IMG/VR virus record: IMGVR_UViG_2548876944_000018 | Reading direction: 5' to 3' (one strand) | DNA from: a virus | Lineage: Duplodnaviria; Heunggongvirae; Uroviricota; Caudoviricetes | DNA: 12,453 nucleotides | Notes under the pieces: model-generated | Told to the model about the DNA's origin: nothing | Database searches by the model: none | Seen by the model: only the letters and a program-made list of their open reading frames with translations | Position numbers and translations under genes: made by a program | Part shown: in pieces, positions 1,750 through 12,453 of the stretch | Position numbering within the stretch: the first letter of the stretch is position 1 | How the letters are laid out: each line of letters starts with the position of its first letter

Positions 1750-2520
1750 ATGCAAAAATTCCATTACGTTTATCACACCACTATTAAATCTAATCGCTCT
1801 GGTAAAATCTATCATTACGTCGGAAAAAGAACAACCACAAATCTAGACGATGGATATGTGGGATCGGGTAAAGTTATTAAAATGATGAAGCGTAAAAATA
1901 AAGAATCAGAAACCCCGATATATGAATTTGAAGTTGTTCGTTCAAAATTGTTTGATACTGCCGAGGAAGCGTTTGAATGTGAAATCCTGTTAGTGGAGGC
2001 AGCACGCGAAAAATGGGGGCGTGGTGTATGTCTTAATATAGCTCCTGGTGGTGTCGGTGGTTTTGATGGTGGTGAAAATCATCCTTTTTACGGAAGAAAA
2101 CATACACCGGAATCTAGAGCTAAAATGTCGGCATCTCGAATGGGTGAAAAGAACCATCGCTATGGTAAACCTAGTGCAATGAGAGGCAAAAAAGTAACAA
2201 ACCCAGAAATATTAGCTAAATTATCGGCTGCTACTCGTGGAGAGAATAACCCCCGTTATGGTAAACCTGTATCAGAAGAAACACGCGAAAAGATTAGAAA
2301 AGCACATCTAGGGCGCAAGCGACCAGAAAGCTCTACCAAGAAATATACACATTCTATACGTATTGCTAAAGGTCAAGGCTGTTGGCAGCATTACGATGAA
2401 ATCCGGCGCGTGTGGATTGAAAACGGTAAACCCGGCGCGGTTAAATTGAGTCAAATCATGGTTAGCTTAGGCCATCCAAAATACAACCTTCGTAGAATGT
2501 ACGAAGACTTCAAGAAATAA
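1750..2520 (+). CDS. GIY-YIG family homing endonuclease with three NUMOD3 repeats (Seg / I-TevI-like), 256 aa
   Basis: N-terminal HYVY...YHYVGKRT (GIY-YIG-like module), FECEIL (compare FECSIL in I-TevI as recalled) and LNIAPGG (conserved Asn region). Three NUMOD3-type repeats follow: NHPFYGRKHTPESRAKMS, NHRYGKPSAMRGKK and NNPRYGKPVSEETREKIRKAH, then a basic C-terminal tail. The gene is visibly more AT-rich than the flanking tail genes. Confidence 0.85.
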   Translation: MQKFHYVYHTTIKSNRSGKIYHYVGKRTTTNLDDGYVGSGKVIKMMKRKNKESETPIYEFEVVRSKLFDTAEEAFECEILLVEAAREKWGRGVCLNIAPGGVGGFDGGENHPFYGRKHTPESRAKMSASRMGEKNHRYGKPSAMRGKKVTNPEILAKLSAATRGENNPRYGKPVSEETREKIRKAHLGRKRPESSTKKYTHSIRIAKGQGCWQHYDEIRRVWIENGKPGAVKLSQIMVSLGHPKYNLRRMYEDFKK

Positions 2521-11481: not shown

Positions 11482-11604
11482 TTAAAAGTTAATGCTAATA
11501 ATCAGACCAAACACAACCGCACCAATCAAATCAATCCAGTTAATACACAGCGAATATTCTTTCTTGAATGTCTTAGATGAAATGCCATCATGAAATTGTT
11601 TCAT
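11482..11604 (-). CDS. Micro-ORF, 40-aa peptide with a C-terminal transmembrane segment (not in the ORF track)
   Basis: My own translation gives MKQFHDGISSKTFKKEYSLCINWIDLIGAVVFGLIISINF. GGGGTGAG lies 5 nt upstream of the ATG, which begins 3 nt after the stop of the preceding micro-ORF. Confidence 0.4.
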   Translation of the reverse strand: MKQFHDGISSKTFKKEYSLCINWIDLIGAVVFGLIISINF

Positions 11605-11607
11605 TGC

Positions 11608-11688
11608 TCACCCCATACTAACGACAATATAAGAAAGACTAATCATGGTTGTGAGACTACCTCCCACGAATGAGATAAAAGCTAACAT
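11608..11688 (-). CDS. Micro-ORF, 26-aa hydrophobic peptide (not in the ORF track)
   Basis: My own translation gives MLAFISFVGGSLTTMISLSYIVVSMG. GGAGA lies about 8 nt upstream. It sits directly after the repeated intergenic stem-loop and directly before the 40-aa ORF. Confidence 0.3.
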   Translation of the reverse strand: MLAFISFVGGSLTTMISLSYIVVSMG

Positions 11689-11704
11689 GTTTGATTCTCC
11701 ATTT

Positions 11705-11740
11705 AAAAAGCGGTGGGAATTACACCCACCAAATTAGAAA
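11705..11740 (-). repeat. Intergenic stem-loop element, copy 1 (terminator-like on the minus strand)
   Basis: Plus-strand CGGTGGG-AATTACA-CCCACC-AAATTAGA. On the minus strand this reads TCTAATTTGGTGGG...CCCACCG followed by CTTTTTAAA. It lies directly after the stop of gene 11745-12131. Confidence 0.55.
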
Positions 11741-11744
11741 TTAA

Positions 11745-12131
11745 TTAAGCGCGAACGATGGTCAGAGTATCCAGCAAACCTTTTTCGTATAATTCGAAAC
11801 ACGTTTTATATTGCTCAATCTTCCAACCGTAGCGGGTGATCTTATTCAGTAGAATAATCACGGTATTCTCATCTAGGTATTGTCCTTGCTTACCAATTAC
11901 ATATGACTCGCGGGATAGTCTCAGCTTACGGAAACCTTTAACACCTAATTCCTTAGCCACCGCTTTAACCTCGTTAATCTCACCTTCTGCGGCTACATAT
12001 TCAGCGTCGATAATCTCAGTTGATGATCTCAGTGCTACCAGAACTAAGGCCATTGCTTCTTCTTCGGTACGAGCAACACCAGCTTTCTCGAAAGTCATCT
12101 CACCAAATTTACGAGTCATAATATTGAACAT
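11745..12131 (-). CDS. Hypothetical protein, 128 aa
   Basis: Clean ORF on the minus strand between the two copies of the stem-loop element. Only a weak Shine-Dalgarno (GGAA) precedes the ATG at 12131. No motif was recognised. Confidence 0.65.
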   Translation of the reverse strand: MFNIMTRKFGEMTFEKAGVARTEEEAMALVLVALRSSTEIIDAEYVAAEGEINEVKAVAKELGVKGFRKLRLSRESYVIGKQGQYLDENTVIILLNKITRYGWKIEQYKTCFELYEKGLLDTLTIVRA

Positions 12132-12150
12132 TGTCGTATTCCGTTTAAAT

Positions 12151-12180
12151 CGGCGGGAATAGTACCCGCCAAATTAGACA
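12151..12180 (-). repeat. Intergenic stem-loop element, copy 2
   Basis: Plus-strand CGGCGGG-AATAGTA-CCCGCC-AAATTAGA. It has the same 6-bp stem and 7-nt loop geometry and the same AAATTAGA flank as copy 1, with a compensatory T:A to C:G change in the stem. It lies directly after the stop of gene 12181-12453. Confidence 0.55.
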
Positions 12181-12453
12181 TTACTTCTTGCTGATAAACT
12201 CTTTAGCGATAAAGTTGATTACTTCTTTCAGCTTCTTGTCTGTATCGATGCACGCTGGTAATTCTTCTTTAATATCCTGCGGCAGATACACATTGCCTTT
12301 AAAGTGGAGGAAACCATCATTACCAATCATGTAGGAGAACATCCATTCACAATCGTTATCCGCTTCCCAGAACGCCACGGTCTCATCCCCAATCAAGGTA
12401 ATGTCCATGTTGCGACGCGCTGCGTAGTTGATGATTGCTTTACCGATGTTCAT
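12181..12453 (-). CDS. Hypothetical protein, 5' end at the window edge (possibly partial)
   Basis: The frame is open to the last base of the window. An ATG sits exactly at 12451-12453, but the true start may lie beyond the window. No motif was recognised. Confidence 0.55.
   Translation of the reverse strand: MNIGKAIINYAARRNMDITLIGDETVAFWEADNDCEWMFSYMIGNDGFLHFKGNVYLPQDIKEELPACIDTDKKLKEVINFIAKEFISKK

Follow-up and report, generated by a model that had tools for sequence, protein, structure and literature searches.

Promoter-early stem-loops (PeSLs) are mobile regulatory cassettes known from the T4-like phages RB49, phi1, JSE, PST and nt-1 (PMC2839356; PMC4122927), and they have been described only in T4-like myoviruses (PMC4122927). 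In RB49, the PeSL-bounded ORFans ORF191-194 were shown experimentally to be excised as mini-circles by PeSL recombination, and ORF190c adjoins one crossover PeSL (PMC2839356). The drop in downstream lacZ expression caused by a PeSL stem-loop, which lacked a classical U-tract, was about as large as that caused by the rrnB T1 terminator (PMC2839356). Here we examine two intergenic hairpins, called E1 and E2, on the minus strand of a 12,453-nucleotide (nt) stretch of DNA (the window; IMG/VR record IMGVR_UViG_2548876944_000018, Caudoviricetes) from a temperate Escherichia coli siphovirus with a serine integrase. Our preferred explanation, to which we give roughly even confidence, is that E1 and E2 are linker hairpins of a PeSL-like but promoter-less kind, which attenuate transcription and double as recombination patches.

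On the minus strand the two spacers read TAA-TGTCTAATTTGGCGGGTACTATTCCCGCCGATTTAAACGGAATACGACA-ATG (E1) and TAA-TTAATTTCTAATTTGGTGGGTGTAATTCCCACCGCTTTTTAAATGGAGAATCAAAC-ATG (E2). A first-pass annotation, made from the letters alone, had placed each element between the stop of one minus-strand gene and the start of the next, and the coordinates bear this out for both. Specifically, the E1 stretch that it singled out is TCTAATTTGGCGGGTACTATTCCCGCC at 12178-12152, flanked by the stop codon of a gene for a 90-amino-acid (aa) protein (12183-12181) and the ATG of a gene for a 128-aa protein (12131-12129). The E2 stretch is TCTAATTTGGTGGGTGTAATTCCCACC at 11738-11712, flanked by the stop codon of the 128-aa gene (11747-11745) and the ATG of a 26-codon open reading frame (ORF; 11688-11686). 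E1 starts TAATGTCTAATTT and E2 starts TAATTAATTTCTAATTT, with the upstream stop codon inside an AT-rich stretch in both.

The two elements are the top-ranked direct repeat of the region (40 nt, 80% identity, spacing 440 nt), and the pattern TCTAATTTGGYGGG-N5-9-CCCRCC gives two matches against 0.00 expected (200 shuffles). Both stems comprise 6 base pairs (bp) and a U.G closing pair (12171 with 12151 in E1, 11731 with 11711 in E2) around a 7-nt loop, and the stems differ by a single compensated change, C-G in E1 and U-A in E2. The equal geometry and the T:A to C:G double change (GGCGGG/CCCGCC versus GGTGGG/CCCACC) are thus as originally described. The unit proposed then, of about 30 bp, is indeed repeated but too short: the likeness continues 3' as G-M-TTT(TT)AAAYGGA and reaches the ribosome-binding site, which makes the repeated unit an almost complete intergenic spacer of about 50 nt. 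Likewise, the flank described as single-stranded is common to E1 and E2, but its final GG belongs to the stem.

The predicted RNA folding energies are -17.0 kcal/mol for the E1 hairpin, flanks included, and -11.4 kcal/mol for the E2 hairpin, with z-scores against shuffled sequences of about -3.5 for both. The E2 hairpin starts 13 nt past a stop codon and is followed directly by C and TTTTT (11710-11705). In E1, a weak Shine-Dalgarno (SD) sequence, GGA, lies 8 nt ahead of the ATG of the 128-aa gene.

Related arrays were read in E. coli genomes, 26 IMG/VR contigs and 10 metagenome contigs; the metagenome scan supplied 10 added loci and one new hairpin variant (L080). The resulting alignment of relatives holds seven distinct hairpin sequences, in which a 7-pair structure has standard pairs in 91.8% of cells. 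Double changes occur at two of the six core pairs (C-G/U-A/U.G at one, G-C/A-U/G.U at the other), the outermost pair is broken in one variant (L068), and RNAalifold predicts the same hairpin. When the 3' partners are slid by 1-3 columns, pairing falls to 43-69% and nearly all covariation is lost. The loop follows the pattern T-N-N-W-A-T-T, with four of seven positions invariant, including T1, A5 and T6, and the closing GGG/CCC is also invariant in all variants. The exact flank TCTAATTTGG, by comparison, is not kept in variants L042 or L080. The wobble variants (L017/L085 and L080) carry G.U pairs on the gene-sense strand only, where the other strand would present C-A or A-C mismatches, and because of this strand bias the hairpin most likely forms in the sense mRNA.

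A narrower comparison, of 21 haplotypes that share the same neighbouring genes, reveals only three variable columns among about 60 in the E2 spacer, one of them in the loop and the other two, both indel columns, between the T-run and the SD sequence. The E2 stem, 5' flank and T-run are invariant in this set, and the adjacent 128-aa gene varies at about 15% of its columns. The first-pass annotation had read the single double change as a sign of selection on structure. That reading gains a second covarying pair in relatives, together with G.U intermediates, but it is tempered by sequences that are few, related and partly recombinant, and by a covariation score that 16 of 500 column shuffles reach. 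Support for selection on the structure is therefore real but modest (P about 0.03-0.05). The feature is real, and its structure probably matters.

The genomic setting, which the first-pass annotation overlooked, casts E1 and E2 as apparent linkers in a shuffled array of gene cassettes. In the window the order is 90-aa gene, E1, 128-aa gene, E2; in relatives L012 and L040 it is an 89-aa gene, a single element and a small ORF, with the 128-aa gene absent, and relative L011 has neither the 90-aa gene nor E1. The hairpin recurs behind four different genes, namely the 90-aa gene, its diverged homologue of 89 aa, the 128-aa gene and, in L042, an unrelated gene of 89 aa; it comes before three different genes or leaders, always 8-23 nt upstream of the next start codon. 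An E-type hairpin stands ahead of a pair of tiny ORFs in every relative examined. Several hairpins are chimeric: those of L017 and L085 join the left half of E2 to a CCCGCC right half and are followed by a different tiny ORF, and that of L080 combines a GGCGGG left arm, the E2 loop and an L042-type right side. Across 60 E. coli genomes, Megablast homology breakpoints fall at E1 and E2, which lie in the most variable part of the prophage. Because a unit of 40-50 nt repeats between otherwise unrelated genes, the element could supply a homology patch for cassette exchange. We infer recombination at the element itself from the presence or absence of the 128-aa gene and from the chimeric hairpins.

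The cassettes on either side of E1 connect this array to the PeSL-bounded ORFans of RB49. The 90-aa protein is 45% identical to RB49 ORF194c (E 1e-26), and the 128-aa protein is 46% identical to ORF190c over 76 aa (E 5e-24; RB49 loci L070 1509-1778 and 2998-3249). These families are spread over unrelated virulent coliphages: members of the 90-aa family occur in V5-like, T1-like and RB49-like (Krischvirus) phages, and members of the 128-aa family in RB49-like (Krischvirus) phages. The two RB49 genes belong to the hyperplastic region from which PeSLs were defined (PMC2839356). Of the 11 longer spacers that we read in this region of RB49, eight share one layout: a TAA stop codon, AT-rich sequence, TTGACA, a -10 box, a leader and GGAGAATCAAA..ATG. 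A G-run/C-run hairpin usually lies inside the promoter or overlaps it, and the T1-like phage PHB17 has the same kind of spacer after its homologue of the 90-aa gene. The tail of E2, GGAGAATCAAACATG, is identical to an RB49 PeSL tail (L070 5108-5122). Furthermore, RB49 has six copies of the 11-mer GGAGAATCAAA within 6.2 kb, and 50 kb of prophage and flanks hold a single one, located exactly at the E2 tail. As a separate observation, phages KMB41, Sortsne and ESP2949-1 match a 42-nt stretch of the 90-aa gene (window 12328-12369, encoding a DCEWMFSY motif) at 97.6% identity, even though protein identity is only about 50% overall.

Intercistronic attenuation was one of the roles first suggested for these elements, and it is plausible for E2. 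In a terminator scan that returned 18 sites where 9.4 are expected by chance, E2 qualifies with seven pairs, five of them G-C, followed by CTTTTTAAAT. The other terminators of this phage are far stronger, with stems of 9-16 bp. From sequence, then, E2 looks like a modest, leaky intrinsic terminator, and E1 looks like a weak pause or 3'-end barrier at best. A terminator acting in the antisense direction was rejected, as the plus strand has no T-run after the hairpin. RNase III sites were also rejected, as the stems are too short.

In our proposal, the linkers stand between cassettes of small accessory genes, at the end of a temperate siphophage that bears the attachment site. E1 and E2 would be two diverged copies of one linker, composed of a stop codon in an AT-rich stretch, the hairpin, in some cases a T-run, and the SD sequence with the next ATG. 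Within the sense mRNA of a polycistronic transcript, the hairpin would cause leaky intrinsic termination or attenuation and would shield 3' ends as a barrier, clearly in E2 and weakly in E1. If this model is correct, expression would be graded along the array, with less read-through into the tiny hydrophobic ORFs and the integrase gene. The repeated 40-50 nt would in addition form the homology patch at which cassettes are gained, lost and exchanged, comparable to PeSLs minus the promoter. We infer the termination or attenuation activity and the RNA stabilization from sequence features, and for attenuation by a hairpin that lacks a U-tract, the lacZ effect of the PeSL stem-loop offers a parallel.

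Several observations weigh against this proposal. Relatives L041 and L043 join the 89/90-aa and 128-aa genes by unrelated spacers of 10-12 nt that contain no hairpin, and because the same two genes are joined in this way, E1 is dispensable. Pairing is conserved among the hairpin variants of relatives, but the E1 junction is not always occupied by the element. E1 has only TTT after its stem (GATTTAAAC) and fails the terminator scan. The L042, L080 and L017 variants have no T-run and even lack an SD sequence; because the T-run is missing from them, termination cannot be a function common to all copies, nor the property that keeps the hairpin. The covariation statistics are weak, given the shuffling result and the few sequences, which are also related, and recombination in the loop, not stepwise mutation, produced some of the variants. 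Templated (quasi-palindrome) DNA mutation could mimic compensated changes without selection on RNA. There are two copies per genome here, compared with dozens of PeSLs in T4-like phages, and the tail shared by E2 and RB49 could reflect convergence on a good SD sequence and an A-rich spacer.

Many of the same facts would suit a passive historical footprint, a minority possibility that we nonetheless take seriously. Under this explanation the spacer was duplicated by unequal or short-homology recombination when the 128-aa gene was inserted or shuffled, E1 is functionless today, the hairpin is merely inherited, and the compensated change arose through quasi-palindrome correction or recombination inside the loop. 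The absence of E1 where relatives join the same genes by short spacers, the presence of only two copies, the recombination-shuffled arms of the chimeric hairpins, the marginal covariation and the missing T-run of E1 all fit. A mere footprint does not readily account for the fact that E1 and E2 have diverged by about 20%, yet their 12 stem bases have changed only as one compensated pair. In addition, all five distinct arm combinations seen in relatives pair, where three of the nine possible ones would not (roughly P = 0.05 by our count). The invariance of the E2 stem and T-run beside varying coding sequence and the constant presence of an E-type hairpin ahead of the tiny-ORF pair also speak against it. 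The first-pass annotation had named RNA processing as another role, and this is less probable again. In such a scheme RNase E would act just 5' of the hairpin, cutting within single-stranded AU-rich sequence (UAAUUUCUAAUUU), the hairpin would cap the downstream 5' end or the upstream 3' end, and the half-lives of the cassette mRNAs would differ. An AT-rich single-stranded flank and a stable GC hairpin are common to all variants, the T-run is not, the distance to the next start codon is short in every context, and the wobble pairs point to a structure in sense-strand RNA. This evidence is positional, however, the exact flank is lost from two variants, and a processing role overlaps with our linker explanation without excluding it.

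The two remaining explanations are improbable. A phage or host protein, such as an RNA-binding repressor, an antiterminator, or a DNA-binding or structure-specific recombination protein, might recognize the T-N-N-W-A-T-T loop as an operator. The invariant loop positions and closing GGG/CCC would be expected of such a site, and the PeSL authors speculated on a protein that targets GGGG...CCCC stem-loops (PMC2839356). We found no candidate protein and no Rfam family match, and nothing indicates the dedicated phage regulator that had been raised at first. The layout is not nut-like (it has no boxA and no 5-nt GNRA-type loop), and both copies belong to a single operon and are far from early promoters. 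The elements are far shorter than attC sites, the sole nearby recombinase is a serine integrase with its own att site, and the identity of a stem base differs between copies of one genome, which is unexpected for a DNA half-site. More doubtful still, and to our minds very unlikely, is the possibility that E1 and E2 are genuine PeSLs. In that case each would be a sigma-70 promoter with a stem-loop inside it and would restart transcription for its cassette, using TTGGCG-17 nt-TTTAAA in E1 or a -10 box in the loop (TACTAT, TGTAAT). The layout resembles that of RB49 PeSLs, with the hairpin in the place of the spacer between -35 and -10; the loop is invariant at T1, A5 and T6; and a terminator upstream of the integrase gene in the same array has a perfect TATAAT in its loop. 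Against this, a sigma-70 promoter scan found none at E1 or E2. The best manual fits are TTGGCG-17-TTTAAA (E1) and TTGGTG-17-TTTTTA (E2), and among the candidate -10 boxes TTTAAA, TTTTTA, TGTAAT and TGCAAT each is missing one or both of the critical bases, A at position 2 and T at position 6; the manual fits are missing both. No -35 partner lies 16-18 nt upstream of the loop hexamers TGTAAT, TGCAAT and TACTAT, and the L042 and L080 variants have no promoter-like flanks at all.

A search for further copies of the element had been proposed. In a pattern search with up to three mismatches, E1 and E2 were the only matches anywhere in the prophage or its chromosomal flanks. The same DNA was scanned with a covariance model derived from the full set of variants, with filters off; again only E1 and E2 stood out, at 37.9 and 37.6 bits, and the next best prophage match scored 11.5. 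No family in Rfam 15 matched: the best scores, 22.4 and 16.5 bits against thresholds of 65 and 34, belong to unrelated viral elements on the wrong strand. Searched against sequenced phages, E1 did match hairpins in V5-like phages; these GGCGGGAATAGTTCCCGCC sequences are intergenic and score 24 and 22 bits with the covariance model. In phages UPEC06 and 4MG (L072 2504-2528; L073 2499-2523) these GGCGGG-AATAGTT-CCCGCC hairpins lie between small early genes, and in gene-sense reading they are approximately the mirror image of E1. We rejected them as E1 homologues because they have the opposite orientation to their genes and were picked by similarity; they are probably generic early-region hairpins.

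The window covers one end of a roughly 38-kb prophage, which carries lambda-like tail genes as well as capsid, portal, terminase and serine integrase genes, the last with the Pfam domains PF00239 (Resolvase) and PF07508 (Recombinase). The prophage is inserted in the E. coli antitoxin gene hicB, beside ydcR, and the att core of its integrase is TTGCCAA in hicB; some related prophages use ycdX as an alternative insertion site. The insertion splits hicB (L013 571-687 and 38649-38957), cutting off roughly its last 40 codons, and hicA is intact. Related sequence is present in about 60 of 5,426 complete E. coli genomes (about 1%), and the 128-aa protein is encoded on hundreds of E. coli assemblies. 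No close DNA-level relatives were found among sequenced phages. The coordinates of the elements and of the neighbouring array are collected in Table 1.

Table 1. Hairpin elements and neighbouring features, in window positions.
Feature	Position	Strand	Description
90-aa gene	12181..12453	minus	first cassette of array; phrog_6147; RB49 ORF194c homologue; E1 after stop
E1 spacer	12132..12180	minus	entire 49-nt gap, 90-aa gene stop to 128-aa gene ATG
E1 parts			AT-rich flank TGTCTAATTT, hairpin, GATTTAAAC, weak SD (GGA, 12142-12140)
E1 hairpin	12151..12171	minus	5' arm GGCGGG 12170-12165, loop TACTATT 12164-12158, 3' arm CCCGCC 12157-12152
128-aa gene	11745..12131	minus	cassette between E1 and E2; C-terminal 76 aa homologous to RB49 ORF190c
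E2 spacer	11689..11744	minus	entire 56-nt gap, 128-aa gene stop to 26-codon ORF ATG
E2 parts			AT-rich flank TTAATTTCTAATTT, hairpin, CTTTTTAAAT, tail GGAGAATCAAAC (11700-11689)
E2 hairpin	11711..11731	minus	5' arm GGTGGG 11730-11725, loop TGTAATT 11724-11718, 3' arm CCCACC 11717-11712
26-codon hydrophobic ORF	11608..11688	minus	MLAFISFVGGSLTTMISLSYIVVSMG; directly after E2; no RefSeq annotation
40-aa ORF	11482..11604	minus	MKQFHDGISSKTFKK...; C-terminal hydrophobic stretch
139-aa gene	11436-11017	minus	signal peptide
Strong terminator	11002-10973	minus	ahead of integrase gene
Large serine recombinase gene	10968-9274	minus	

The start of the 90-aa gene lies about 35 nt from the attachment junction. 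At the other end of the linkers, the 26-codon ORF, whose product contains the motif ..YIVV.., stops 3 nt ahead of the 40-aa ORF. This tiny-ORF pair, with closely spaced or overlapping stop and start codons, is present in every relative whose array was read, as is the 40-aa ORF in particular, and in some relatives the 26-aa ORF is swapped for other hydrophobic versions (MKLLELL.., MNLLISF..). The tiny ORFs are mostly unannotated in RefSeq. Searches of Pfam and PHROGs gave no function for the 90-aa, 128-aa, 139-aa, 40-aa and 26-aa products and matched no family to the two tiny ORFs; a profile of the 40-aa ORF likewise had no match in a collection with one genome per species.

The array contains two further linker-like features. 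The terminator upstream of the integrase gene (window 11016-10960, minus strand) reads GCCCCTATCG-TTATAATA-CGCGGTAGGGGC followed by GTTTTTGTTT; its loop holds a perfect TATAAT, with TTTAAT 17 nt upstream, and it resembles a terminator-plus-promoter composite in the style of a PeSL. Incoming transcripts would stop at such a composite, and transcripts begun inside it would have an incomplete hairpin. A second conserved linker (window 11481-11437; L043 3440-3855), of the form ..GATATAAATATATCGTAATTCAAA.AACAAGAGGAAATTCTACT-ATGAAAAAGATTATC, recurs ahead of several different signal-peptide genes that share the N terminus MKKIIAG..., which suggests that cassettes are exchanged at this linker type as well. 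Elsewhere in the window (1750-2520, plus strand), a gene between tail genes encodes a 256-aa protein with NUMOD3 repeats, whose N terminus we take to be GIY-YIG-like, that is, homing-endonuclease-like. The same interval holds other genes (189 or 217 aa) in relatives, and some relatives instead have a GIY-YIG nuclease gene beside the integrase gene.

The phage attachment site, attP, was reconstructed by joining both prophage ends (L013 38584-38650 with L013 680-727 / L001 9630-9681, just past window base 12453) and, for the ycdX type, L084 5175-5260 with L012 2690-2740. The hicB-type attP reads TTGACT-acattcgggTTGCCAAa-TATTAT with a 17-nt spacer, a terminator just upstream and the 90-aa gene about 35 nt downstream. 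The ycdX-type attP, which has a different core, reads TTGACT-18 nt-TATCAT, and the -10 hexamer of other relatives is TATAAT or TATGAT. Because the crossover core lies inside the promoter spacer, a near-consensus promoter facing the array is present only on unintegrated DNA; by its sequence, this appears to be a sigma-70 promoter that integration splits. A literature search on promoters split by attP returned nothing specific. Promoters assembled at the junctions of insertion-sequence circles and Pcirc of ICEclc are analogues.

If the attP promoter is functional, the E1/E2 operon, possibly with the integrase gene, would be switched on at infection or excision and off by integration, and attenuating hairpins would be useful in such an infection-only operon. 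We tentatively suggest, as an idea that is more doubtful than the linker explanation itself, that E1 and E2 are promoter-less descendants or counterparts of PeSLs, in which the individual promoters were replaced by one promoter assembled at attP (TTGACT-17/18 nt-TATNAT) and the hairpins grade the expression of an infection-only operon. If this is true, the PeSL type of linker-mediated shuffling of early ORFan cassettes would not be confined to T4-like myoviruses and would operate in temperate siphoviruses too. The cargo arrays of prophages would then be connected to the hyperplastic regions of virulent T4-like and T1-like coliphages. If the linker explanation is right, a mechanism put forward for the plasticity of T4-like phage genomes would also be at work in a temperate phage, with short conserved regulatory linkers serving both as insulators and as crossover points for small accessory genes, and virulent and temperate coliphages would be connected through their accessory-gene pools. 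The element is in itself a modest one: a short terminator-like hairpin present in two copies per genome and in about 1% of complete E. coli genomes. In practical terms, the hairpin and its tail could provide a simple marker for cassette boundaries and for unannotated tiny genes at prophage ends.

E1 and E2 can finally be set beside the better-described systems that they resemble. They share with intrinsic terminators and intercistronic attenuators, including those that bound lambdoid morons, a GC-rich hairpin just past a stop codon, followed in E2 by C and TTTTT, a position between genes of one transcription unit, and a stem kept by compensatory change. They differ in having a short stem (6-7 bp) and a large loop (7 nt), and in that the U-tract is absent from E1 and from three variant types of relatives. 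Repetitive extragenic palindromic (REP) and similar stabilizer hairpins, such as the malE-malF REP, are repeated extragenic palindromes between cistrons that can block 3' exonucleases and create differential expression within operons. E1 and E2 are likewise repeated intercistronic palindromes, but they have no sequence relation to REP or to bacterial interspersed mosaic elements, have no Rfam match and comprise just two phage-borne copies.

Two recombination or antitermination systems were considered and rejected as identities for the elements. Integron attC sites are 57-141 bp long, contain R''/L''/L'/R' boxes and extrahelical bases, and are recombined by the tyrosine integrase IntI. Arrays of attC sites have in common with this locus small, mostly promoterless cassettes in the same orientation, imperfect palindromes, an adjacent recombinase gene and a single upstream promoter, an analogy that was also drawn by the PeSL authors. 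The palindrome here is only 19-21 nt, however, the recombinase next to the array belongs to the large serine integrases and has an att core of its own, and some junctions have no palindrome. In a lambdoid nut site, boxA (CGCTCTT(T)A-like) precedes a 5-bp stem whose 5-nt loop is GNRA-like, and the site lies downstream of an early promoter. E1 and E2 instead have the 7-nt loops TACTATT and TGTAATT and no boxA-like sequence, and both copies lie in one operon at the att end.

The closest likeness is to PeSLs. Each kind of element opens at the stop codon of the preceding gene, set in AT-rich sequence, carries a G-run/C-run stem-loop and closes with an SD sequence and the next ATG. Both flank small ORFans that vary among close relatives, and in both, deletion leaves a single, sometimes chimeric element. 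Moreover, the two genes around E1 are homologues of ORF194c and ORF190c, from the RB49 cluster in which mini-circles were demonstrated. In contrast to PeSLs, E1 and E2 lack the sigma-70 -35/-10 pair, which is the feature that gives PeSLs their name, and they reside in the prophage of a temperate siphovirus with a serine integrase rather than in a T4-like myovirus. The E2 stem is followed by a T-run, whereas RB49 PeSL stems are usually followed by a -10 box, and the stem-loops themselves have no sequence identity. On this comparison, E1 and E2 would act like the stem-loop and linker part of a PeSL while standing outside the PeSL family as defined.

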